Assembly: GCA_004524535.1 (NCBI GenBank)
Contig: SDNY01000008.1
Coordinates: 6,314-26,313 of the forward strand
DNA from: Promethearchaeota archaeon
Lineage (GTDB): Archaea > Asgardarchaeota > Lokiarchaeia > Sigyniarchaeales > SOKP01
Direction: 5' to 3'
Length of the DNA stretch: 20,000 nt
The notes under the pieces: generated by a model
Databases searched by the model: none
What the model saw: the letters and a program-made list of their open reading frames with translations, nothing else
Told to the model about the DNA's origin: nothing
Shown here: piece after piece, positions 8,419 through 18,324 of the stretch
How positions within the stretch are numbered: position 1 is the stretch's first letter
Layout: each line of letters opens with the position of its first letter
Made by a program: the position numbers and the translations under genes

Positions 8419-8946
8419 TTAATGCTTTAAAAAAATAGTTTTAATAATATATCTTGTTAAACTCTCAAATGCATTTTCAACATTTAGCCCCGTTTTAGAA
8501 GATGTAATCATATAATCGAACAGATTGTATTTTTCTTTATGATATAATATATAATCTTCATCTAAACTTTGTTCCTCAACCAAATCAGCCTTTGTCCCTA
8601 AGAATATTATGGGTAAGTTTGGATCTTTCGATCTACAAATATTTACCCATTGTTCTATATTTTCTAAAGTTATTGCGCGAGTTAAATCAAACATTAGAAG
8701 AGCTCCTTTAGCTCCTATAACATAATTCTCCAATAAAAAGCGAAATCGTTCCTGTCCACCAAAATCCCAGATTTGTAGAATAACATCAAATCCATCAATG
8801 TTTAGTTCTTTTATAGAGAACTGAACTCCTATAGTCATCTTAGTGTCTGCCAGAAACTCTCCCTCAATGTATTTGTGAAGTAGAGTGGTTTTCCCCACAC
8901 CGCCATCACCGCTTGTAAGTATTTTAAGTACGAGAGGTCTACTCAT
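8419..8946 (-). CDS. Ras-superfamily small GTPase (Rab/Rho/Arf-like)
   Basis: G1 'GDGGVGKTT', G2-region 'TKMTIGVQF', G3 'WDFGGQERFR', G4 'LGTKADL', G5-like 'SSKTG'; ATG start. Confidence 0.95.
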   Translation of the reverse strand: MSRPLVLKILTSGDGGVGKTTLLHKYIEGEFLADTKMTIGVQFSIKELNIDGFDVILQIWDFGGQERFRFLLENYVIGAKGALLMFDLTRAITLENIEQWVNICRSKDPNLPIIFLGTKADLVEEQSLDEDYILYHKEKYNLFDYMITSSKTGLNVENAFESLTRYIIKTIFLKH

Positions 8947-9213
8947 TTTTAATTTTTTCTATTCAACTATATTTAATTAAAGACTAAATTATCGCTAAAT
9001 TGATTAAATTAATAATTGGATCTTATTTTAATAATTCTCATTTATAAATTATATTTCTTTAAATAAATTATTGTTTTTTTTCAATCATAATTATTAATAA
9101 AAGTATATAAAAAATTTCATTATAAACTATGAATATTTAATTAAAATTCTCATTATAAAAAGCATAGTTCTAAAAAATATTCAGAAATTTTAACCGAATT
9201 ATGGACACATTAA

Positions 9214-9669
9214 TTAAACTCTTTCAATACAGAGATATTTCTTTTGCCTTAAAAAAATAACATTAACATTTGAATTTTTGGCTTTTTTACGTAATTCTGA
9301 ATCATTAGTGGCTAGAAAAACATGACTATATTCTTTTTTTAATCTAATACACCATTTTAATAGAAATTCATCTGTGGTTTCCTTATCATTCTTAATCTCG
9401 TCAATGAAATAAATAGGATATACTTTTTCGTTTTTTTCTAAATAATTCATTCCGCCTTTTAACTGTCGATTAAATTTTCTAGCTTTTGTTTCTCTGATTA
9501 TCTTTGCGTTTAATTCGTCTAAAATTTGTTTGAATACATAAAATCTCGTTTTTCCCTCTAATTTCAAATAAATATCATTTAAATAATCAATTTTAAATTG
9601 GAAAGGTAGGAGTATAAAATTAGAGTCGATTATGATTATATTAATATTTTTCAAGTTCTTGGAATTCAA
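9214..9669 (-). CDS. PIN-domain nuclease-like protein (Fcf1/VapC9-type)
   Basis: 'NIIIIDSNFILLPFQFKIDYLNDI', 'FYVFKQILDELNA', 'TTDEFLLKWC', 'HVFLATNDSELRKKAKNSNVNVIFLRQKKYL' match the acidic PIN signature. TTG start overlaps the upstream GTPase stop (TTGA). Confidence 0.8.
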   Translation of the reverse strand: MNSKNLKNINIIIIDSNFILLPFQFKIDYLNDIYLKLEGKTRFYVFKQILDELNAKIIRETKARKFNRQLKGGMNYLEKNEKVYPIYFIDEIKNDKETTDEFLLKWCIRLKKEYSHVFLATNDSELRKKAKNSNVNVIFLRQKKYLCIERV

Positions 9670-10187
9670 TATGTTTGTCGGTCTAAGATCGTTCTTGTTA
9701 TTAATTCAAAAGATTCAAAAACATTTTCACCTGATTTTGAAGAAATTTTCAAGTAATCAAAGAGATTAAATTTTTCTTTAAATTGTAACGCATAATCATC
9801 ATCAACCATTACGTCATTTGCAAGGTCGAGTTTTGTTCCTAAAAAAAGAATCGGTAGGTTACTGTCACTTCTACGTACAATATTAACCCATTGTTGTAAG
9901 TTCTCTAACGTCATAGGTCGTGTTAGATCAAACATTAATAAGGCACCTTTTGCTCCTAAAACATAACTTTCTAATAAGAAGCGGAACCTTTCTTGCCCCC
10001 CAAAGTCCCATAATTGAAGAGTGCATTGTTTTCCATCAACTTCGATTTCTTTTAAGAAAAACTCGACACCTATAGTCATTTTCGTTTCTGCTGAGAATTG
10101 GCCTTCCACATACCTATGAAGCAAAGTTGTCTTCCCAACACCGCCTTCACCTGCTGTTAGAATCTTTAAAATAAACTTTTTGGGCAA
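9666..10187 (-). CDS. Ras-superfamily small GTPase, paralog of 8419-8946
   Basis: G1 'GEGGVGKTT', 'TKMTIGVEF', 'WDFGGQERFR', 'LGTKLDL', 'SSKSG'; start codon is TTG. Confidence 0.95.
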   Translation of the reverse strand: MPKKFILKILTAGEGGVGKTTLLHRYVEGQFSAETKMTIGVEFFLKEIEVDGKQCTLQLWDFGGQERFRFLLESYVLGAKGALLMFDLTRPMTLENLQQWVNIVRRSDSNLPILFLGTKLDLANDVMVDDDYALQFKEKFNLFDYLKISSKSGENVFESFELITRTILDRQTY

Positions 10188-10578
10188 TCTCTTTCACCAA
10201 TTCTTTATTTCGGAGTCATTTTTTTATTGAATAAGAAATTTAAAATTAATTTTTCATTAAATTATATTTTCAATATAAATAATTTTTATCTTACTTCTTT
10301 TATATTCTTAATTCACTATACTTTTAATTTATCTTAATTGTAAATATAATTTTATATTTTTGATTTTTTTTGTTTTTTATTTCTTAAATAAAACTTATCA
10401 CTATTAAACATATTTTTTTGATAGATTGAAATTAAGCACAAAAAATTGAACCTATTAATTGCAAAATTTTAATCCAGTGATGTAATTTCTAAAGGTTCTT
10501 AACTCTATAAATATTTATTTAGCAATAACTTATACTTAATTATCTCTAACTTAATTAATATAAGTAAATTCTTAGAAT

Positions 10579-10584
10579 AGGTGG
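10579..10584 (+). promoter_or_regulatory. Shine-Dalgarno-like AGGTGG upstream of the cupin_3 gene
   Basis: AGGTGG ends 7 nt before the ATG at 10592. Confidence 0.45.
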
Positions 10585-10591
10585 TTAAATA

Positions 10592-10885
10592 ATGAAAATG
10601 AAGAAGAAAATCCCATCTGAAGAGCAATTAAAGAAATTAAATGTGAACTCATGGGGTACTTGGAGTAAAGAAGTAAGCGAATTCGATTGGTCTTACGGTG
10701 ATACAGAAACGTGTTATATTTTAGATGGAGAAGTAGAAGTAACAGATTCAGATTCGGGGGAAAAAATCGAATTCAAGAAAGGGGATTTAGTGCAATTTGA
10801 AAAGGGATTAAAATGTATCTGGAACGTTAAAAAACCAGTCCGAAAGCATTTTAACTTTAATTTAGATTTTGGAGAAATAGACTAA
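10592..10885 (+). CDS. Small cupin (cupin_3/EutQ-like) protein
   Basis: 'WGTWSKEVSEFDWSYGDTETCYILDGEVEVTDSDSGEKIEFKKGDLVQFEKGLKCIWNV' is typical of the cupin_3 family. Confidence 0.85.
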   Translation: MKMKKKIPSEEQLKKLNVNSWGTWSKEVSEFDWSYGDTETCYILDGEVEVTDSDSGEKIEFKKGDLVQFEKGLKCIWNVKKPVRKHFNFNLDFGEID

Positions 10886-10936
10886 ATTTAAATTTTTTAT
10901 TTTTATTCTTTTTTATATTCAACGTGAATTAATATT

Positions 10937-13132
10937 ATGGTTATTAAAAAGTTTAGTTGCCCTACTTGTAATGCTGGATGTGGATTATTAGTTGAAGTAA
11001 ATAATAATAAAATCCTTTCTGTAAAACCTGATCCTAATTATCCATTAAGTGGCGGATTTTGTTGTCCAAAAGGGATTGCTTTAGGTGATATTACTAATGA
11101 TAAAGATCGTATTCTAAAACCTCTAATACGTTCTGGTAATACCTTTCATGAAATTTCTTGGAAAAAAGCAATTCACGAAATTGCTGCGAAACTCACCAAT
11201 ATTCGAAACAAATATTCCCCACATTCTATAGCATATTATATGGGAACGAATTCATTACACCAATACGCCCATAGTATGTTCGCCAAAGGCTTTATGGATG
11301 CAATTGGTAGTAAAAATATGTTTAACGCCGGATCTGTAGATGATAACAACAAATTTGTTGCACAGTATTTTCTATATGGAAATTCAATAATAATGCCTAT
11401 TCCGGATATACCTAAAACAGATTTATTAATTCTAATCGGCACTAATCCAGCAGTGACAAATTTGAGTTTAGTAACATGTTCAAATGTTCTCAAAGTAATG
11501 AAAGGAATTAAAGATAGAGGGGGAGAAATATATATAATCGACCCGCGTAGAAATGAAACTGCAAAAATTCTCACAAAAAAGAATGATGGACATCACATCC
11601 CAATTTTTCCAGATACAGATATATATTTTCTCTTATCAATGATTAATGTCATTCTGTCAGAGAATTTAGAGGATAAAAATTATCTTAATCGAAATAGTTC
11701 TAATTATGAAAATTTAAGGGAACTCGTTAAATTTTTTACTCCTAAACTTGCCGAGAAAATTTGTAAAATACCTTCCGAGACGATTTATGAACTTTCTCGA
11801 AAATTCGCAAAAACTAAGAAAGCGGTTATCTATGGAAGGTTGGGGACCTGCTTATCTACATTTAGCACTCTAAATGCTTGGGCAATTGATGTTTTAAATA
11901 TCATTGCTGGTAAACTAGACAGACCAGGCGGAGCGATTTTTGGAAAAAATGTAATCAATATAGCGAATTTAGGAAAAATAGTAGGTATGGGTGCTTTTGA
12001 TACTTACAGGAGTCGTATTGGAAATTATCCGGAGGTTATGGGTGCGTTTCCTCTCAGTGTTTTAGCCAGAGAGATTTTAATTGAAAAAAATCCTGTTAGA
12101 GCATTAATTATTTCGGGAGGAAATCCAATTTTAAGTGCTCCTAATTCAAACGAGTTTAGAAGAGCTTTAGAAAAACTAGAATTATGTATTATTCTAGACT
12201 TTTATAATAATGAAACAGCAGAATTCGCTGCGAATTATATACTACCTACGAGAACCCCGATGGAGAATTCTAACACTCCGGTGTATCACCTTAATTATCA
12301 AATTTTTCCACATGTGGAATACAATCATGCTCTCATTACCCCTGATAAGCATGGTCCAAAAGCAGAATGGGAAATTCTTTTGAGTTTATCAAGATTGATG
12401 AAAGTTCCGATGTTTGGAAATCGTATTTTAAATTTAATTCCAAAAATTTATAAGCTTTTTAGGAAAGAGTTTCATCCCGAATTTTTTATAAAATTATTTC
12501 TGTTTCTCGGGCAAGTGATCGAAAAAAAAATTCCGCACTTAAGTTCTGGAACATTAAGCGTTAAGAAATTAAGGAATAATGAAACAATATTATTAGGAGA
12601 TAATGAATATGGAGTTCTCAAGAAATATATCCAAACAAAAAACAAAAAAATTACTTTATTAAATCCTTTAATCGAGGAACAAATAAAATTGTGTAAAAAC
12701 TCATATAATAAAAAAATTGAGGATATAAAACGTATTGAGGCTCAAATCAACGAGTTTGTAGTTATTGGTAGGCGTAATCTGAAGACCATGAATTCCTGGA
12801 TGCACAATATTGAAAAATTATGGCGAAATAAACAAGAACCTCAATTATTAATAAATTCTCAAGACGCCACTCGATTGAATTTAATTGAACACGATTTAGT
12901 GATTCTTCAAAACGAATTTGGTTCTATTAAAATTCCAGTGTCCCCCACTGATGATATAATGTCTGGAGTTGTATGTTATCCTCACGGTTGGGGACATAAG
13001 AACTCATATCTTTCTTATGCTAATCAGCATCCAGGTGAAAACATCAATGTTTTAACCAATTCATCCAAATTAGATAAATTATCTGGTATGCCCGTATTAA
13101 ATGGATATAAGGTTTTTCTAAAAAAAATTTAA
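10937..13132 (+). CDS. Molybdopterin (bis-PGD, Mo/W) oxidoreductase catalytic subunit with N-terminal 4Fe-4S site
   Basis: 'CPTCNAGCGLLVEV...GGFCCPKG' Fe4S4 motif, 'DLLILIGTNPAVT', 'IYIIDPRRNETAK', 'GKLDRPGGAIFG', 'ALIISGGNPILSAPNS', 'NYILPTRTPMENSNT', C-terminal MopB-like 'LVILQNEFGSIKIPVSPTDDIMSGVVCYPHGWG'. Confidence 0.9.
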   Translation: MVIKKFSCPTCNAGCGLLVEVNNNKILSVKPDPNYPLSGGFCCPKGIALGDITNDKDRILKPLIRSGNTFHEISWKKAIHEIAAKLTNIRNKYSPHSIAYYMGTNSLHQYAHSMFAKGFMDAIGSKNMFNAGSVDDNNKFVAQYFLYGNSIIMPIPDIPKTDLLILIGTNPAVTNLSLVTCSNVLKVMKGIKDRGGEIYIIDPRRNETAKILTKKNDGHHIPIFPDTDIYFLLSMINVILSENLEDKNYLNRNSSNYENLRELVKFFTPKLAEKICKIPSETIYELSRKFAKTKKAVIYGRLGTCLSTFSTLNAWAIDVLNIIAGKLDRPGGAIFGKNVINIANLGKIVGMGAFDTYRSRIGNYPEVMGAFPLSVLAREILIEKNPVRALIISGGNPILSAPNSNEFRRALEKLELCIILDFYNNETAEFAANYILPTRTPMENSNTPVYHLNYQIFPHVEYNHALITPDKHGPKAEWEILLSLSRLMKVPMFGNRILNLIPKIYKLFRKEFHPEFFIKLFLFLGQVIEKKIPHLSSGTLSVKKLRNNETILLGDNEYGVLKKYIQTKNKKITLLNPLIEEQIKLCKNSYNKKIEDIKRIEAQINEFVVIGRRNLKTMNSWMHNIEKLWRNKQEPQLLINSQDATRLNLIEHDLVILQNEFGSIKIPVSPTDDIMSGVVCYPHGWGHKNSYLSYANQHPGENINVLTNSSKLDKLSGMPVLNGYKVFLKKI

Positions 13133-13161
13133 TAATAATTAAAGGAATTTTTATAAAGAGT

Positions 13162-13737
13162 CTATAAATTCTGAAATCGCTCCCTTTCTTTCCGTTCTTT
13201 CACAGAAATTTCCCTTTTACTAAGTTTTTCATATTTAATTAATGCATCCTCAATAGCCTTTACTTCTGCTCTTGTTTCAATATTAAATTCTTTAAGATTT
13301 TCGAGAATTTCTTTATCTCCTAAACCTTTATGATACAATTCTTTAAATTTCTCAATAGTATTCTTATGATAAAAAATATAACATCTATTAAAAAATAAAA
13401 TTAGCCAAGTTTTTTCCTTCTTTTTAGTCTGTTTTTGCGACAATTCAAACATTTTGTCTTGGACAGATCGCAAAGAACGACCAAGTTTTTTCGCAATAGT
13501 TTTATCTTCGACCCTGTAATACTTCTTCATAAATCTTTTTAATTTTTTCGATTTAAAAAATCTCCATATATACGATAAAATAAGCAACGCCATAGCAATA
13601 ATTGTTACGACAATTGCGGGCGTAAGATTTTCTGCGATGACCCAGCCAGCATAAGCAATTATAATGATAATTAAAATCAGGAATATGAACCATTTTCTTC
13701 CAATTGATTTGAAAAATATTCTTATTTTACTAGGCAT
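13162..13737 (-). CDS. Membrane protein with N-terminal two-TM hairpin and cytoplasmic HTH/SANT-like region (hypothetical)
   Basis: 'WFIFLILIIIIIAYAGWVIA' and 'AIVVTIIAMALLILSYIW' TM segments, then 'YYRVEDKTIAKKLGRSLRSVQDKMFEL' HTH-like pattern; ATG start. Confidence 0.55.
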   Translation of the reverse strand: MPSKIRIFFKSIGRKWFIFLILIIIIIAYAGWVIAENLTPAIVVTIIAMALLILSYIWRFFKSKKLKRFMKKYYRVEDKTIAKKLGRSLRSVQDKMFELSQKQTKKKEKTWLILFFNRCYIFYHKNTIEKFKELYHKGLGDKEILENLKEFNIETRAEVKAIEDALIKYEKLSKREISVKERKERERFQNL

Positions 13738-13800
13738 GATTGAAAAAAGTGATGGAATAAATTAAAATAATTATAATATTTACCACAAAAGTTAAAGCGC

Positions 13801-13951
13801 TTCCGGGTTCGGATGGGACCGGGTATTTTCCAAGATTCCCATGACCGTAAACGAATCTTTGCTTGCGGCGCGAAGCGCGCAATCAATTTACAGTTTGACA
13901 GTTCCCACAGATCGCAACTGCAGTACTATTGTCAACGAAATCAAGTTTAAC
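13801..13951 (-). rRNA. Circularly permuted 5S rRNA gene: 3' half (13951-13887), hairpin linker (13886-13852), 5' half (13851-13801)
   Basis: Minus strand reads GUUAAACUUGAUUUCGUUGACAAUAGUACUGCAGUUGCGAUCUGUGGGAACUGUCAAACUGUAAA, then linker, then UUUACGGUCAUGGGAAUCUUGGAAAAUACCCGGUCCCAUCCGAACCCGGAA. Re-ordered it is a ~116-nt archaeal 5S. Helix I UUUACGG/CUGUAAA (7 bp), helix III CCGG/CCGG, helix IV CUGCAG/CUGUGG, helix V UUGACA/UGUCAA. Confidence 0.88.
13863..13882 (-). other. Linker hairpin joining the natural 3' and 5' ends of the 5S rRNA
   Basis: UUGCGCGC-UUC-GCGC(C)GCAA: 8 bp with one bulged C, in an otherwise AT-rich region. Confidence 0.75.
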
Positions 13952-14103
13952 TTCCGGCGCGTGCCTAATTGCCACCAACTTTTATGGCTGTATCCGTAAT
14001 ATAGCAGCATTTTACTATTTCATAATAAATGCTTGCTTATATGATTTAGACTAAAAATGGTAATAAAGGTTAATAATTAAATTTTTTCAAAAAAAGATCA
14101 AAC

Positions 14104-16254
14104 TTAAAAGGAATCGTTTCGTGAGTGTAATAATTTATACTTATAATTCTTATACCCTTTGTAGGTTATAAAAATCGAAATCCCTGTTATACTTATAATA
14201 GCTATTGACATTGTAATAAGGATATAATCCATCATTGGCGTGGGTATTGTAAATTCAAAGCTATCATCATCTAAGATATGATAATTGTCAGCCCAATCTC
14301 TTGCTACTATTAAAAATGAGTATTTACCCGGATCTAAATTATGAATCGTGTGTTTAAACAAATTATCTTCATCACCCCTAAAGCTATTTAACATTCTGTA
14401 ATATGAATATTCATCAAAATCATCGTCATCTTCAGATTGTAATAAAAATACGCTTTCAAGACCCGATTGTAAGTCATATGCGTTGACCTCAAAACAAACA
14501 TCATCATAAACCGTAGGTTCATCAGGACTACAATCTTCATCGCTAATTTCTGGTACTAAATTGTCCGGAAGTGTTGAAAAATTAAAGTACGAGGGAATTA
14601 AATTATGCCCTGTTATTGTCACATTATATTTTTCACCCGCTTGAGCGGGAAGGCGAAAATTGACTTTTCCATTAATATCAGCGTATGCTGTATAATATTT
14701 TCCATCTTCAGTTCTCAGATGTACTCGTGCGTAAGGAACCGCAATACCGTTATCATTCTTAATTACTGTTGAAACCATTTGTGCCTCGAAAAAATTTCCT
14801 TTAAAGGGATTTGATGCATTTATTGGAACACCAGTATAAATATCAACTTCTGGATCTCCTAAAAGACAATAAGTTAAAACATTCTTACGCTGCCATTCTT
14901 CGTTCATTGTTGCTTCACCTCTTTCAAAATAATCACTATTCATATATGCAACTTTCGAGTCATATAACGCTCTCCCTTGTTGGAATTTTTTATTTTGAAA
15001 AAATTCCTCCCAAAATAACTTGGCATTTCCACGATTCAATTTTTCAAGATAAGTATCATCATCATAATAAAATGTTATTCTTAGAGCACCTACTACTCCT
15101 ATAGCTCCCGCATTAGATACATTTATTAAGATTTCAGCTAAATTGTTGTCATTTTTGTCATATGATGCTGTTTCACAAGCATCAAGATAAACTAAAGAAG
15201 GCATATTAATATTACCACAATTCTCAGCATCATTAGTATCATACATTGTAACTTTTGTTGGAGAAAGCCTACTATAAACATCATAATTGTCACCATGCCC
15301 AGCCATTATAACTGTCGAATATCCAGCAGTCATGTTTTGACTTACCTTTGCTTGAGTTAGATCTTCAAAAGGTTCAATAGGTATAAATTTAGAAGGTTCT
15401 GAAGGATAATATTTACCAGTATAATCACATAGATGTGTAAAATTCATGAAAAAGTGTGTATATTGTTGCCAAATGTATTGAGTAAGGCGACCTTCATCTT
15501 CATAATCATTTAAATTTGTAGGAGAGGGATCTGAGATTCCACCTGCTAAAAGCATCCTATTCATCCATTCACCAATAAAAGGATCTGTTTCATATTTTAA
15601 TGTTTTATTAACCATCAGTTCAAGTTCATAAGCATCATTTGCGGGTAATCGCCCCACATAAACTTCTGGTGTCCAATCAATCTCGTCTATTCCCCCCGTA
15701 TAAATTGGTGATTCGCCCCATTTTCCATTATTATTATTATCCCAGCTGCCGGTTAAATCTGCGTAATAAAAATCAGTTGGTTTATTATCTGGTTCACCGC
15801 TAGGATCAGGATTGTATACATATCTAATAGGAATTAAATCATCATTCGAATCGTCTTTTATATCACCACATAAAAGAACCCATCGAATATTATCTCTCTC
15901 ATAATAATATTTTATCTTATTTCGAATCTCTTCAGCATTGCTGCTAACATTTAAAATAACTGTTTTTACACCTTTTTCATTTTTCCATTCCATTAGGGGC
16001 TTTACAGCTTCATAAAAATCAGGTTTACCTTCAGGCACAATAATAAGCATTTCGATTTTAGGATTGTACCAATTATAGTTTAGAGAATAGTAATCTATTT
16101 GTGGTAATTCAGACAAATCTATGTCTGGAACATCATCAGCAACTACATTGGTAGGAGTTAAATTTGTATCTCCAAATATGTAGTAATTAATTCCTGAAAA
16201 TGGGATTAAAGTTAAAATAATGATAGACAAAAACGCTGTCTTTTTAGATATCAT
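14104..16254 (-). CDS. Secreted/membrane-anchored gingipain-like C25 family cysteine peptidase
   Basis: N-terminal signal/TM; 'MLIIVPEGKPDFYEAVKPLMEWKNEKG', 'WVLLCGDI', 'PEVYVGRLPA', catalytic-type 'VIMAGHGD' and 'LVYLDACET', 'YCLLGDPEVDIYT'; Ig-like tail and C-terminal TM. Confidence 0.88.
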   Translation of the reverse strand: MISKKTAFLSIIILTLIPFSGINYYIFGDTNLTPTNVVADDVPDIDLSELPQIDYYSLNYNWYNPKIEMLIIVPEGKPDFYEAVKPLMEWKNEKGVKTVILNVSSNAEEIRNKIKYYYERDNIRWVLLCGDIKDDSNDDLIPIRYVYNPDPSGEPDNKPTDFYYADLTGSWDNNNNGKWGESPIYTGGIDEIDWTPEVYVGRLPANDAYELELMVNKTLKYETDPFIGEWMNRMLLAGGISDPSPTNLNDYEDEGRLTQYIWQQYTHFFMNFTHLCDYTGKYYPSEPSKFIPIEPFEDLTQAKVSQNMTAGYSTVIMAGHGDNYDVYSRLSPTKVTMYDTNDAENCGNINMPSLVYLDACETASYDKNDNNLAEILINVSNAGAIGVVGALRITFYYDDDTYLEKLNRGNAKLFWEEFFQNKKFQQGRALYDSKVAYMNSDYFERGEATMNEEWQRKNVLTYCLLGDPEVDIYTGVPINASNPFKGNFFEAQMVSTVIKNDNGIAVPYARVHLRTEDGKYYTAYADINGKVNFRLPAQAGEKYNVTITGHNLIPSYFNFSTLPDNLVPEISDEDCSPDEPTVYDDVCFEVNAYDLQSGLESVFLLQSEDDDDFDEYSYYRMLNSFRGDEDNLFKHTIHNLDPGKYSFLIVARDWADNYHILDDDSFEFTIPTPMMDYILITMSIAIISITGISIFITYKGYKNYKYKLLHSRNDSF

Positions 16255-16728: not shown

Positions 16729-18324
16729 ATGGCAAATGAATTAGAGGATGTAAGTGGCATTGGAAAGGCAACAGCTGAAAGATTAAAAGCGGCAGGGATT
16801 GATTCAGTTCAAAAATTAGCTACTGTAAAACTTGAAGATTTATTAGGATTAAAAATTAAAGGTGTTGGAACAGCCACTGCAAAAAAATATATAGAGAACG
16901 CTAGAAGTATGTTTGAAAAAATGACTTCTAAAGAAAAGGTTACAACTCCATCTAAAGTAGTTAAAGAAAAAGAAGTTAAAAAAGAGAAGAAAATCCCAGA
17001 AAAAGCTAAAGTAAAGGAAAAAAAAGCAAAAGCAATAGAAGAAAAAGGATTGGATGTAAAGAAGGAATTAAGACAACAAGCTGAATGCAACATTGGTTTA
17101 GTTGGTCATGTAGACCACGGAAAAACAACGCTAGTTAAGGCTATGACTGGAGATTGGACAGACAGACATTCTGAAGAACAAGAGCGTGGTATATCTATTA
17201 AATTAGGATATTCTAACGCAACAATTCTCTACTGTCCAACATGCGATATTTATGTAACGGCACATATGGCTGAATTGGAAAGAAAAAAAGGTCAACCCCG
17301 ATATACTTGTTCAAAATGCAAAGGTAAATTAATTTTTAAGCGTAATATTTCTTTTGTGGACGCACCTGGACATGAAATACTAATGGCAACCATGCTTAGT
17401 GGAGCCTCTCTAATGGACGGAGCTTGCCTATTAATTGCTGCGGATGAACCATGTCCACAACCTCAAACAAGAGAACACTTAGCTGCTTTAAACATTGCAG
17501 GGATTAAGAACATCATTGTTGTACAGAACAAGATAGATGCCGTTTCAAAAGAGCAAACTTTAGAGAACTACAATCAAATTAAAGATTTTATTAAAGGAAC
17601 TGTTGCTGAAAATGCACCAATAATACCAACCTCATCTGTTTTTAACTCAAACATAGATTTAGTGATTCGCGCTTTTGAAGAAGTAATCCCTTCTCCCAAA
17701 TTGAATGAAGACGAGGAATTTCAGTTTTTAATAGCTCGGTCATTTGATATTAATCGCCCTGGAAGTGAAATTGATGATTTAAAAGGTGGCGTTATTGGTG
17801 GTTCTGTATTAAAAGGAAAAATAAAAATTGGTGATAAAATAGAAATTCGACCTGGCCTTCACATTAAAGATAATTATATGCCATTAAAATCAACTATCAT
17901 TAGTATTAGTCAAGGTAAGAATTTATTGGAGGAAGCTAAACCAGGGGGGCTTATAGGTTTAGGAACAAAATTAGATCCGTCTTTGACTAAGGGAGATTCT
18001 TTAATTGGTCATTTAGTTGGTCGACCAGGAGAGTTACCAGAAATCCTTTCTGAAGTGGAATTAAATGTTAATCTTTTAGATCGAGTGATAGGTTCTGAAA
18101 ATATGATAAAAGTGCACGATCTCAAGCATAATGAAAAATTATTGCTAGTTGTTGGTACAGAAAAAACAGGTGGAATAGTTACAAAAATTTTAAAGAATAC
18201 CGTAATAATTAAATTAAATCCCCCAATTTGTCCTGCGGAAAATTTTATTTACGCTATTTCTCGTATAATTAATCGCCGTTATCGATTAATTGGATATGGA
18301 GTTAATATAAATCACAATAAATAG
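16729..18324 (+). CDS. eif2G: Translation initiation factor aIF2-gamma with N-terminal helix-hairpin-helix domain and charged linker
   Basis: 'NIGLVGHVDHGKTTLVKAMTGDWTDRHSEEQERGISIKLGY', 'CPTCDIY...CSKCKG' Zn knuckle, 'SFVDAPGHEILMATMLSGASLMDGACLLIAADEPCPQPQTREHL', 'VQNKIDAV'. N-term 'LEDVSGIGKATAERLKAAGIDSVQKLATVKLEDLLGLKIKGVGTATAKKYIENARSMFEKM' is HhH. Confidence 0.95.
   Translation: MANELEDVSGIGKATAERLKAAGIDSVQKLATVKLEDLLGLKIKGVGTATAKKYIENARSMFEKMTSKEKVTTPSKVVKEKEVKKEKKIPEKAKVKEKKAKAIEEKGLDVKKELRQQAECNIGLVGHVDHGKTTLVKAMTGDWTDRHSEEQERGISIKLGYSNATILYCPTCDIYVTAHMAELERKKGQPRYTCSKCKGKLIFKRNISFVDAPGHEILMATMLSGASLMDGACLLIAADEPCPQPQTREHLAALNIAGIKNIIVVQNKIDAVSKEQTLENYNQIKDFIKGTVAENAPIIPTSSVFNSNIDLVIRAFEEVIPSPKLNEDEEFQFLIARSFDINRPGSEIDDLKGGVIGGSVLKGKIKIGDKIEIRPGLHIKDNYMPLKSTIISISQGKNLLEEAKPGGLIGLGTKLDPSLTKGDSLIGHLVGRPGELPEILSEVELNVNLLDRVIGSENMIKVHDLKHNEKLLLVVGTEKTGGIVTKILKNTVIIKLNPPICPAENFIYAISRIINRRYRLIGYGVNINHNK

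Follow-up and report, generated by a model that had tools for sequence, protein, structure and literature searches.

Conserved leader and trailer strands as a likely processing stem on a circularly permuted 5S rRNA gene of Lokiarchaeia

The 20,000-nucleotide stretch analysed here (the window) encodes on its minus strand a permuted 5S rRNA gene, a solitary gene with protein-coding neighbours and a conserved BRE/TATA-like box in front of it, outside any rRNA operon; neither 16S nor 23S nor tRNA genes were found in the 20-kb window, and a dedicated tRNA search of it gave no hit. The 5S domains are not colinear, the 3' part (13951-13887) preceding the 5' part (13851-13801), and because of this order the locus was filed as a permuted 5S gene and not as a standard RF00001 member as encoded. 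The next ORF begins at 13737. The main features of the gene, in the order of transcription, are as follows.

14074..14088, minus strand: candidate BRE/TATA promoter GAAAAAAUUUAAUUA; as TGAAAAAATTTAATTA, it is the block conserved best in an alignment of 24 upstream regions
13999..14042, minus strand: leader hairpin AUAUAAGCAAGCAUUU ... AAAUGCUGCUAUAU, folding at -11.4 kcal/mol and optional in the family
13961..13974, minus strand: leader insert UGGCAAUUAGGCAC, the degenerate remains of a small hairpin that reads GUAGC-AAUUC-GCUAC in relatives
13887..13951, minus strand: 3' part of 5S rRNA, encoded first (helix II 3' strand, helices V and IV, helix I 3' strand)
13852..13886, minus strand: 35-nt hairpin extension capping helix I and joining the ancestral 3' and 5' ends
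13801..13851, minus strand: 5' part of 5S rRNA, encoded second (helix I 5' strand, loop A, helix II 5' strand, helix III, loop C)
13738..13781, minus strand: A/U-rich trailer with the U-runs UUAUUUUAAUUUAUU and CUUUUUUC, assigned from sequence only

When the window was searched with the Rfam 5S model RF00001, no match was obtained at the gathering score (38 bits), and no other Rfam family reached its own threshold there; nor did any family in 136 kb of 15 related loci. In permissive mode, two 5S fragments were detected in reversed order on the transcript: model positions 26-52 matched 13800-13825 with 21.5 bits and a posterior probability of 1.0, and a weak match of full length was seen at 13885-13979 (15.2 bits), aligned mainly over the 3' part. 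Weak permissive-mode matches to snoR31, the greA leader, GlsR25 and alpha_tmRNA had E-values of 0.75-3.4 and were taken as chance. Both the conserved sequence of helix III and loop C and, in the 3' domain, the GUACUG...GGGAA motifs are present and are invariant in 21 relatives. For 5S helices I-V, the native fold together with the flanking stems was 96.3% paired, with compensatory changes at 23 pairs, compared to 31-42% in slid controls. Helix I is capped in most relatives by a UUCG, UACG or UAUG tetraloop on an 8-bp helix.

The box at 14074..14088 is a putative promoter from which, judging by its position, transcription would start near 14052-14046; two related loci, L022 and L036, carry the same BRE/TATA-like box about 25 nt before the outer stem. 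Neither of these has the leader hairpin, and in other clades the hairpin has a different sequence, GGUAUUUAC-AUU-GUAAAUAACC. The leader insert had been called unpaired in the first-pass annotation, a description that holds for the window, where the insert is essentially unstructured (-0.8 kcal/mol, no better than shuffles), but not for the family, in which 14 of 32 relatives form a stable small hairpin, counted by folding each sequence separately because the hairpin register differs between clades. A GC-AWUUC-GC motif in the insert is common to both permutation types described below, and comparison with relatives indicates that the insert is a hairpin that has decayed in the window lineage. 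A pairing of UUAGG in the insert with UUUAA was considered and rejected, as it is not conserved in relatives. The U-rich trailer is a probable archaeal oligo-U termination region.

It had been proposed that complementary flanks of 11 bp, with one G-U pair, lie about 180 nt apart outside a bulge-helix-bulge motif (BHB), a motif recognised by the splicing enzyme, and enclose the permuted 5S like 16S/23S processing stems. The two strands are the following.

13975..13988, minus strand: outer stem 5' strand GCCAUAAAAGUUGG, identified by sequence, duplex and covariation; it contains the originally annotated 11 nt (13987-13977) and has G-U pairs at both ends
13782..13795, minus strand: outer stem 3' strand UUAACUUUUGUGGU, identified by sequence, duplex and covariation; it contains the originally annotated 11 nt (13793-13783)

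On the minus strand, CCAUAAAAGUU (13987-13977) pairs with AACUUUUGUGG (13793-13783) over 11 contiguous bp, exactly at the positions and with the sequences first described, the G-U pair being U13984-G13786. The strands are separated by 183 nt, lie outside the BHB as reported, and can be extended by three further G-U pairs, G13988-U13782, G13976-U13794 and G13975-U13795, to 14 bp, with a duplex energy of -16.2 kcal/mol (RNAduplex; z = -4.7 vs shuffled trailers). Among control positions or shuffles of the window, an ungapped flank stem of at least 11 bp occurred in 2.4-5.9% of cases and one of at least 13 bp in 0.4-1.0%; the stem within the window alone is only moderately unusual. In the fold of 13770-14010 (minus strand) that the first-pass annotation had suggested, the RNAfold minimum free energy structure does close with the stem, but the whole-fold z score is only -1.54 and not significant. 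Given these chance rates and this z score, the single sequence is suggestive, not decisive.

We therefore rest the case for the stem on homologues, which, unlike the single sequence, are decisive. The 36 related loci came from a genome scan (6), a metagenome scan (21) and synteny-guided look-ups (9); all lie in Asgard MAGs or sediment metagenomes, with conserved synteny, and next to the 32 distinct precursors the neighbouring protein is 43-88% identical to that of the window. The genome scan fixed the AGTACTG-to-CCCAT distance at 88-118 nt, for which reason it caught long forms only, and its 6 loci are all in Asgard MAGs. Among the 22 metagenome matches, 21 were true permuted 5S genes. Locus L020 was rejected as a permuted 5S gene, being a chance match in a G+C-rich contig. 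No 5S was found near L035, the most distant TauE-like homologue, and an exact-match look-up of the window's C25 peptidase returned no record. The comparative set comprised 32 distinct full precursors, and the covariation alignment of the outer stem 21 sequences. L013, in which the leader is replaced by an A/T run that is possibly an assembly join, was excluded from alignments; MAFFT misplaced the trailers of L005 and L008, and the alignment was anchored instead.

Each of the 32 distinct precursors has a leader-trailer duplex (p <= 0.01 in 29 of them; median z -4.4). In the 21-sequence alignment, the original 11 pairs are 90% paired, and 5 of them show changes on both sides; for the outer stem, 90-94% of cells are paired, with compensatory changes at 5-6 pairs, compared to 29-45% in controls slid by 1-3 columns, and none of 500 shuffles matched the observed covariation score. 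The GUGG core of the 3' strand is invariant across alignments, and the clade of L030 and L036 carries at the same place a stem of unrelated sequence, (U/C)AGUUG / CAACU(A/G). In the outer stem, 18 G-U stand against 2 A-C, which identifies the helix as RNA of the minus strand. Run without structure input, RNAalifold returned the outer stem, a helix of 3 bp (H1), a central helix of 4 bp next to a 3-nt bulge and, among the 5S helices, I, II, IV and V. Altogether, the comparative sequence data indicate that the flanks are a real, evolutionarily conserved RNA helix clamping a BHB around the permuted 5S.

The BHB between this stem and the 5S body consists of the following elements.

13958..13960, minus strand: outer helix H1, 5' strand GCG, pairing with CGC at 13799-13797 and invariant in the 21-sequence alignment
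13954..13957, minus strand: central 4-bp helix, 5' strand CCGG, pairing with CCGG at 13806-13803; a leader copy mimicking the 5' strand of 5S helix III
13951..13953, minus strand: bulge 1, AAG, with a predicted cut at 13952/13951; G13951 corresponds to position 52 of the Rfam 5S model
13803..13806, minus strand: central helix, 3' strand CCGG, shared with 5S helix III as its 3' strand
13800..13802, minus strand: bulge 2, AAG, with a predicted cut at 13801/13800 and exactly 3 nt unpaired in RNAalifold
13797..13799, minus strand: outer helix H1, 3' strand CGC, identified by pairing and RNAalifold

H1 continues into the outer stem and occurs as GCG/CGC, ACG/CGU, GUGU/ACGC or GCGU/ACGC, with compensatory replacement in L029, L030 and L036. 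The central helix is exactly 4 bp long (CCGG/CCGG, CUGG/CCAG or CUGG/CCGG), and 98.8% of its cells are paired; compensatory change is seen at one pair, the second (CG in 16, UA in 4 and UG in 1 of the 21 sequences), and this covariation is limited to one or two lineages and one G-U intermediate. In L003, L006, L007 and L019, the leader tetranucleotide and both strands of helix III change together. The central helix competes with native helix III and, since 13803..13806 belongs to both, the two pairings are mutually exclusive. The inner helix H2 (GUU/AAC) is 3 bp long and invariant in type 1 loci, so that covariation is uninformative on it, and is weak, of about 2 bp, in type 2. Bulge 1 has 3 nt only if G13951 is left unpaired, as its pairing with C in GUU/AAC reduces the bulge to 2 nt; judged by these pairings, the motif may be a relaxed BHB. 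In relatives, the first two nucleotides of bulge 1 vary (AA, AC or AG) and the third is always G, and the first two of bulge 2 are always AA and the third varies (G, A or U); the bulge nucleotides predicted to be kept in the product are invariant, and those predicted to be discarded are variable.

In standard BHB geometry, the cut falls after the second bulge nucleotide, as in tRNA introns at 37/38, and we used this rule to predict the cut positions. Cutting in silico after the second bulge nucleotide of both strands and ligating the ends gave canonical 5S sequence in both permutation types. In type 1, permuted in loop B (model positions 51/52), the join reads GAACCCGGAA+GUUAAAC; in type 2 (L031-L033), whose junction falls in loop C (34/35), with outer stem and BHB laid out alike, the rule yields ACCCGGUC+CCAUCCGAAC. 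Two other registers were tried by hand, one with a GCGC/GCGC central helix and one with the bulges 5' of the central helix; in both the junction was not 5S, and the CCGG/CCGG register with 3' bulges was preferred for that reason. The spliced circles measure 120-121 nt in short forms and 150-151 nt in forms with insertions. Those of the short forms L010 and L030 fold as the 5S three-way junction of helix I, the II/III arm and the IV/V arm; those of the window and L031 fit it less cleanly. What the data show is covariation-backed conservation of the outer stem, H1, the central helix and the 5S helices, and a cut rule that yields canonical 5S in silico; on these computational grounds, the proposal that the flanks are a processing stem outside the BHB, and that cut-and-circularise logic has been applied to 5S, is supported.

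The pathway suggested by these features would begin with minus-strand transcription of the permuted gene, driven apparently by a BRE/TATA promoter of its own. The leader-trailer helix of 11-14 bp, together with GCG/CGC, would bring the leader CCGG beside the CCGG of the helix III 3' strand, and their pairing would create the 4-bp central helix of the BHB, with an AAG bulge 3' of each strand. The splicing endonuclease EndA, presumed to act here, would then cut after the second bulge nucleotide on both strands, at 13952/13951 and 13801/13800; Asgard EndA is reported to be an (alpha-beta)2-type enzyme with an L1 loop and a broad specificity that tolerates relaxed BHBs (PMC5829648). RtcB, as the putative ligase, would join ...CCCGGAA to GUUAAAC..., which would restore canonical 5S and allow helix III to form. 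The predicted product junction links ...GAACCCGGAA (ending at 13801) to GUUAAACUUG... (starting at 13951), and the predicted by-product junction links the leader ...GCGCCGGAA (ending at 13952) to the trailer GCGCUUU... (starting at 13800). Because the ancestral ends at helix I are covalently capped, by the 35-nt hairpin here and by a tetraloop in relatives, the product would be a closed circle. We thus consider it likely that leader and trailer pair as a processing stem of the precursor RNA, which comes from a circularly permuted 5S gene of Lokiarchaeia (Promethearchaeota at NCBI) and is spliced to a circle.

Other explanations account for part of these data. That the complementarity is a chance product of DNA of 30% G+C, or an inverted repeat at the DNA level such as a remnant of the permuting rearrangement, would fit the frequency of stems of at least 11 bp in controls of this A+T-rich window (2.4-5.9%) and the fold z of only -1.54; it is nevertheless virtually untenable, as the stem occurs in all 32 distinct precursors with compensatory changes, one clade has changed its sequence fully, and the related loci are not assembly duplicates of one sequence, while the large excess of G-U over A-C (18 to 2) is not expected from a DNA-level repeat or from the opposite strand. 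The helix might instead chiefly protect or terminate the transcript, as an exonuclease block or in 3'-end formation, with the ends made by nucleases other than EndA. U-rich tracts directly after the 3' strand and, in L022 and L036, a 5' strand near the inferred transcription start are in line with such a role, which we nonetheless regard as highly improbable: it leaves unexplained the conserved BHB between stem and 5S body, as well as the leader copy of the helix III strand and its covariation, and joining would still be needed for a continuous loop B (loop C in type 2). It is also very unlikely, if a little less so, that the permuted RNA is mature without cleavage and the leader-trailer helix a permanent closing helix. 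A precedent exists in the brown-algal mitochondrial 5S, permuted in its final product without splicing (PMC4267664), and a stable 14-bp helix could serve as a clamp; yet the leader CCGG pairing, if kept, destroys helix III and loop C, where the molecule is most conserved. Nor does a permanent helix explain the exactly conserved BHB layout (4 bp, each bulge 3' of its own strand), the split between invariant and variable bulge nucleotides, which fits a cut after bulge nucleotide 2, or the precise restoration of canonical sequence in two permutation types.

An alternative that accepts both the processing stem and the BHB holds that the circle is an intermediate, re-opened in the helix I cap to give a linear 5S. 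Most archaeal 16S rRNAs and permuted tRNAs mature in this way, the circles from permuted tRNA genes (PMC4267664) and from pre-16S/23S (PMC12918454) being re-linearised, and the 35-nt helix I extension of the window's clade (13886-13852) could hold a cleavage site. In most relatives, however, the bare tetraloop on the 8-bp helix I offers neither spare sequence nor a conserved motif to cut, and circular mature RNAs are known, namely the Thermoproteus SRP RNA and the 23S rRNA of several archaeal phyla; we consider re-opening unlikely. For the processing stem, then, the reading we prefer is that the rRNA is probably cut out and re-joined, into a circle. Beyond this, we tentatively raise the possibility that the mature ribosomal 5S of Lokiarchaeia is itself the covalently closed circle produced by EndA and RtcB, that the permutation point has shifted one or more times, from loop B (51/52) to loop C (34/35), while the leader-trailer platform stayed as it was, and that the permuted form is the reason why 5S has gone undetected in these Asgard genomes.

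In literature searches on permuted or circular 5S in archaea or Asgard, we found no description of such a gene. If the proposed processing is true, then in some archaea the tRNA-splicing machinery would handle all three rRNAs. Having two permutation points on a shared, conserved platform, the family would be a natural experiment on the movement of a BHB site within a structural RNA. Standards for "high-quality" MAGs demand a 5S gene, so that a permuted gene would systematically downgrade such genomes; a covariance model of the precursor would close this annotation gap. No 5S gene could be predicted in closed Heimdallarchaeum genomes (Wu et al. 2022; PMC8813620). 5S has been held exempt from archaeal BHB cutting and circularisation (PMC12918454), a view that this locus family speaks against in an entire Asgard clade.

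Several known systems share parts of this arrangement. Low-abundance circular 5S species occur in Sulfolobus, Pyrococcus abyssi and Halobacterium and, like the proposed product, are circular RNAs with 5S sequence in archaea, but they derive from colinear genes without a BHB, have heterogeneous junctions and have been read as minor intermediates or degradation products. The brown-algal mitochondrial 5S (Rfam mtPerm-5S; Valach et al. 2014, PMC4267664) likewise has helix I closed into a hairpin and its ends relocated; it differs in being organellar, in having a permuted linear final product formed without BHB or ligation, and in the position of its ends at the three-way junction, and the mtPerm-5S model gave no match to the window even in permissive mode.

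Archaeal 16S and 23S rRNAs, to which the first-pass annotation had compared the locus, resemble it in that a leader-trailer helix encloses the whole rRNA and presents a BHB, and the excised rRNA is circularised by ligation; circular pre-rRNAs and circular mature 23S are described in archaea in a report that states that 5S is not processed by BHB cutting or circularisation (PMC12918454). The 16S and 23S genes lie in operon transcripts, unlike the solitary permuted 5S gene, and the 5S BHB sits directly on the 5S body, its central helix using a helix III strand. Furthermore, 16S and 23S genes are colinear with the mature RNA, so that circularisation is not needed there for sequence order. At the permuted 5S gene, ligation would be required to restore the canonical 5S chain and would not be a passing intermediate step, and for this reason the permuted SRP RNA of Thermoproteus, the closest analogue, and permuted tRNA genes are a better analogy than the 16S/23S stems.

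Permuted tRNA genes (Cyanidioschyzon merolae; Thermofilum pendens; PMC3978253, PMC3218864) share the permuted order, a BHB formed from the flanks and a circle made by the splicing machinery. Their circles are re-opened at the linker by RNase P and tRNase Z; at that place most of the 5S genes carry a bare tetraloop, in which no signal for re-opening is evident. In Thermoproteus, a BHB built from leader and trailer is the site at which the permuted SRP RNA is cut; since a covalent bond connects the ancestral ends, the mature molecule is a circle (Plagens et al. 2015, eLife; PMC4731332). As in the 5S gene, the 3' part precedes the 5' part in one transcript, leader and trailer form a BHB at the permutation point, and both genes escape standard covariance models; in Thermoproteus, the functional sequence is restored by EndA and RtcB, as we propose for 5S. 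The Thermoproteus system differs in that it concerns an SRP RNA in Thermoproteales, not an rRNA in Asgard, and in that it is experimentally proven, whereas the 5S case is computational. Features of the 5S family that go beyond the SRP layout are the long outer stem with its covariation, the leader hairpin, a tetranucleotide in the leader resembling one strand of an internal helix, and the occurrence of two alternative permutation points in one gene family.

Searched against Rfam at the gathering score, the window gave no match. In permissive mode, model positions 26-52 of 5S rRNA (helix III and loop C) matched 13825-13800 with 21.5 bits, and a second, weak match at 13979-13885 (15.2 bits), nominally to the whole model, aligned chiefly over its 3' part; the two stand in reversed order along the transcript. 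The order of the elements below indicates that the ancestral 5S ends are joined and that model positions 51 and 52 flank the new ends.

Elements of the permuted 5S gene in the window (minus strand), in transcript order, followed by the parts of the predicted bulge-helix-bulge (BHB) motif
Leader, with the 5' strand of the outer stem: 13987-13977 (-), CCAUAAAAGUU
GCG-CCGG-AAG
5S segment G52 through the helix I 3' strand
35-nt hairpin
5S segment starting with the helix I 5' strand and running through A51
G-CGC
Trailer, with the 3' strand of the outer stem: 13793-13783 (-), AACUUUUGUGG
H1, BHB outer helix: GCG/CGC, formed by the flanks of the new ends
BHB central helix, 4 bp: leader CCGG with CCGG of the helix III 3' strand
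BHB bulges: AAG, 3' of each central strand

The standard BHB cut falls after the second bulge nucleotide, as for tRNA introns at position 37/38. When this cut and ligation were performed in silico, the product read GAACCCGGAA+GUUAAAC, which is canonical 5S sequence. The 4-bp helix and 3-nt bulges agree with the BHB description in PMC4731332, the 5' bulge counting as 3 nt only when its G remains unpaired. Because the central helix and helix III are mutually exclusive, the precursor would have to take a non-native fold to be cut.

The first-pass annotation had proposed that this gene is enclosed by 11-bp complementary flanks lying about 180 nt apart and extendable by G-U pairs. These strands do pair contiguously with one G-U, are separated by 183 nt, and lengthen at both ends to a 14-bp stem (13988-13975 with 13795-13782), scored by RNAduplex at -16.2 kcal/mol (z = -4.7 relative to trailer shuffles). 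At the window's 30% G+C, chance flank stems of at least 11 bp occurred in 2.4-5.9% of controls and those of at least 13 bp in 0.4-1.0%. The minimum free energy fold of 13770-14010 (-), proposed as a check, was closed by the outer stem, yet overall it reached a z-score of only -1.54. Judged from the window alone, the outer stem is only moderately unusual, and its significance must therefore rest on comparison with relatives.

Species-representative genomes, scanned by pattern, yielded 6 loci, each of them in an Asgard MAG; in metagenomes, the pattern of the 3' junction matched 22 loci, of which 21 carried the same kind of gene, and synteny-guided look-ups added 9. This amounted to 36 related loci (handles beginning with L), from which 32 distinct full precursors, the window's included, were analyzed. 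A leader-trailer duplex was present in 32/32, reaching p ≤ 0.01 against shuffled trailers in 29/32 (median z of -4.4). Covariation, suggested earlier as a check, was scored in an anchored ungapped alignment of 21 sequences and spoke for the stem: the 11 pairs were paired in 90% of cells, with changes on both sides in 5/11, and a 4-bp outward extension was 77% paired. As a control, sliding the partner by 1-3 columns left 29-45% paired, and 0/500 shuffles matched the observed covariation score. The stems of L030 and L036 are unrelated in sequence to the others and occupy the same position.

Variants of the outer stem
Window: 5' CCAUAAAAGUU, 3' AACUUUUGUGG
L003, L006: 5' UUAACCACAAAA, 3' UUUUGUGGUUAA
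L004: 5' UUAACUACAUAAAC, 3' GUUUAUGUGGUUA
L019: 5' AACUAUGUAAA, 3' UUUAUGUGGUU
L030: 5' UAGUUG, 3' CAACUA
L036: 5' CAGUUG, 3' CAACUG

Given full-length precursors and no input structure, RNAalifold returned the outer stem and H1, the central helix, in which exactly three nucleotides of the 3' strand stay unpaired, and helices II, V, IV, and I of 5S. When the native 5S fold was scored together with the flanking stems, 96.3% was paired, with 23 compensatory pairs. Wobbles in the outer stem comprised 18 G-U versus 2 A-C, and the helix is therefore one of RNA from the 5S strand, not a DNA-level repeat or opposite-strand RNA. The outer stem is conserved as a structure.

The BHB parts vary as well. 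At its second pair, the central helix has C-G in 16 sequences, U-A in 4, and U-G in 1; since the helix III 5' strand is also altered in all four U-A sequences, the leader tetranucleotide changes along with the strand it pairs with rather than being a plain copy. H1 shows compensatory variants (GCG/CGC; ACG/CGU in L029; GUGU/ACGC in L030; GCGU/ACGC in L036). In type 1 genes, i.e., those with the junction of the window, the bulge on the 5' strand reads A-[A/C/G]-G, its G invariant, and that on the 3' strand A-A-[G/A/U], its AA invariant. A cut after nucleotide 2 predicts this pattern, as it would retain 5S positions 52 and 50-51 in the product. The inner helix GUU/AAC, weak in type 2, is invariant in type 1, so covariation is uninformative on it.

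In three loci, a second permutation type has its junction within loop C, at model positions 34/35.

Loci of type 2
L031: 2000-2500
L032: reverse strand, about 2000-2330
L033: 1-190

L031 and L032 have the same outer stem, leader hairpin, and H1 as type 1 (L033 is truncated at its 5' end), while in type 2 the partner of the leader CYGG is the 5' strand of helix III instead of the 3' strand. The leader of L031 ends in ...GCG-CUGG-AA/C-CAUCCGAAC... and its 3' end reads ...ACCCGG-UC/A-CGU...; the same cut rule, applied in silico at the slashes, gave ACCCGGUC+CCAUCCGAAC, again canonical 5S sequence. The L032 gene is inverted relative to its neighbors and may be a degenerate copy, as its predicted loop C would read ACACAUCC. 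Asgard archaea are reported to possess an (alpha-beta)2 splicing endonuclease, EndA, with an L1 loop, accepting relaxed BHBs (PMC5829648). Cleavage, ligation, and final topology of the precursor are what we infer from these sequences.

An insert in the leader, previously described as unpaired, is so in the window, where the 14-nt UGGCAAUUAGGCAC lacks structure (its -0.8 kcal/mol does not beat shuffles), but 14/32 relatives have a stable hairpin of 4-5 bp at this position, often GC-AWUUC-GC (GUAGC-AUUUC-GCUAC in L029; UAAGC-AAUUC-GCUUA in L022). About ten other relatives have an A-rich insert, and a spacer length of about 13-17 nt is kept in several lineages. The insert looks like an ancestral hairpin at the three-way junction of outer stem and H1, now a spacer in several lineages.

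Some 10-25 nt upstream of the stem 5' strand, L003, L006, L010, L011, L012, L014, L018, L019, and L023 carry GUGGUU(N4-6)AACCAC, for which the window clade has no counterpart beyond a weak equivalent (window 13999-13983). This local hairpin excludes the long-range stem, because the same AACCAC pairs with the trailer GUGGUU, and it may serve as a holding structure during transcription; L019 shows joint changes in the upstream copy (GUAGUU) and the 5' strand (AACUAU). A conserved, imperfect leader hairpin of -11.4 kcal/mol lies at window 14042-13999 (-); elsewhere it has a like shape and another sequence, GGUAUUUAC-AUU-GUAAAUAACC, flanked by AAUAAG/CUUAUU, and L022 and L036 are without it. Nearly invariant across loci, TGAAAAAATTTAATTATTA (window 14089-14071 (-)) looks like a candidate BRE and TATA box, which would imply a leader of ~90-100 nt; upstream of it, a second conserved A/T box, CCUUUUAAGUUUGAUC (about 14112-14097 (-)), adjoins the C25 peptidase stop codon. 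In L013 (14300-14600, reverse strand), otherwise identical to L012, a long A/T run replaces the leader and the ACCACAUAAAU strand is displaced, which may reflect a chimeric assembly or a genuine rearrangement.

Spliced in silico, the circles measured 120-121 nt in short forms, tetraloop included, and those of L010 and L030 folded as the 5S three-way junction. The circle might be re-linearized in the window clade, whose 35-nt helix I cap leaves room for this; most relatives cap helix I with a UUCG, UACG, or UAUG tetraloop, and since a bare tetraloop offers no obvious site for re-opening, a circular mature 5S is favored. Expansions of the 5S differ in place by clade: helix I is longer by ~35 nt in the window clade (13886-13852 (-)), L016, and L029, and L003-L006, L008, L012, L013, L015, and L037 have a ~30-nt insert in the helix IV/V arm, after GUACUG, at two positions with unrelated sequences (columns 86-115 and 119-148 of A3, the alignment of type 1 precursors).

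The gene order C25 peptidase, permuted 5S, 191-aa TauE-like ORF, cupin, and Ras-family GTPases is kept, with TauE-like identity of just 43-88% across loci. Homologues of this ORF are named Promethearchaeota or Promethearchaeia at NCBI, two being labeled Thorarchaeota; Promethearchaeota, a phylum-rank name in NCBI taxonomy, replaces the name Lokiarchaeota. The window encodes two Ras-family GTPases, eIF2-gamma, and Spt5, consistent with an Asgard origin. Over window 8419-16254 and in most related loci, the fuller neighborhood (C25 peptidase, 5S, TauE-like membrane protein, cupin, Ras-family GTPase, PIN-domain protein, Ras-family GTPase, Fe-alcohol dehydrogenase) is strongly kept despite ~50% protein identity. 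A 731-aa molybdopterin oxidoreductase (10937-13132) is inserted between TauE-like ORF and cupin in the window, and several loci have an additional ~185-aa ORF on the opposite strand between peptidase and 5S. In the eIF2-gamma homologue (window 16729-18324 (+)), a helix-hairpin-helix domain (PF14520) occupies residues 3-59 at the N-terminus; this fusion is unusual and is matched over its full length in L001, L004, L006, and L007 at 70-95% identity. L003 (Odinarchaeota H3B.4) and L006 (Hodarchaeota DZ1B.205) have nearly identical 5S loci under different phylum labels, so at least one label or bin is probably wrong.

Altogether, the proposal of a 5S processing stem is backed by the duplex in 32/32 precursors, by compensatory pairs, and by a cut rule restoring canonical 5S in silico; strong comparative evidence supports the stem as the putative outer part of a processing helix in a BHB-dependent, circularly permuted 5S family of Lokiarchaeia. 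The finding is of high interest because such processing is unexpected for 5S, bears on genome annotation, and offers exact, testable junctions.

No description of a permuted or BHB-processed archaeal 5S was found in the literature searched, and as most subscription journals fall outside its coverage, novelty is claimed for the searchable part. Circularization has been stated for 16S and 23S "but not 5S rRNAs" (PMC12918454), and 5S genes were not predictable in closed Heimdallarchaeum genomes (PMC8813620). The permuted 5S of brown-algal mitochondria differs in having a permuted final product and no BHB (PMC4267664); the circular 5S species of Sulfolobus, P. abyssi, and Halobacterium, which are rare and have no BHB, are interpreted as related to degradation. 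In 16S/23S processing, a stem likewise carries a BHB, but the genes, unlike the permuted 5S gene, are colinear with the mature RNA and stand in operons; no rRNA or tRNA genes were found near the permuted 5S in the window or, at the Rfam gathering score, in 15 related loci, and a conserved BRE/TATA-like box lies upstream of the gene. Permuted tRNA genes are similar, but their circles get re-opened. Thermoproteus offers the closest parallel in its permuted SRP RNA, with a leader-trailer BHB, EndA cleavage, and a circular mature RNA (PMC4731332).
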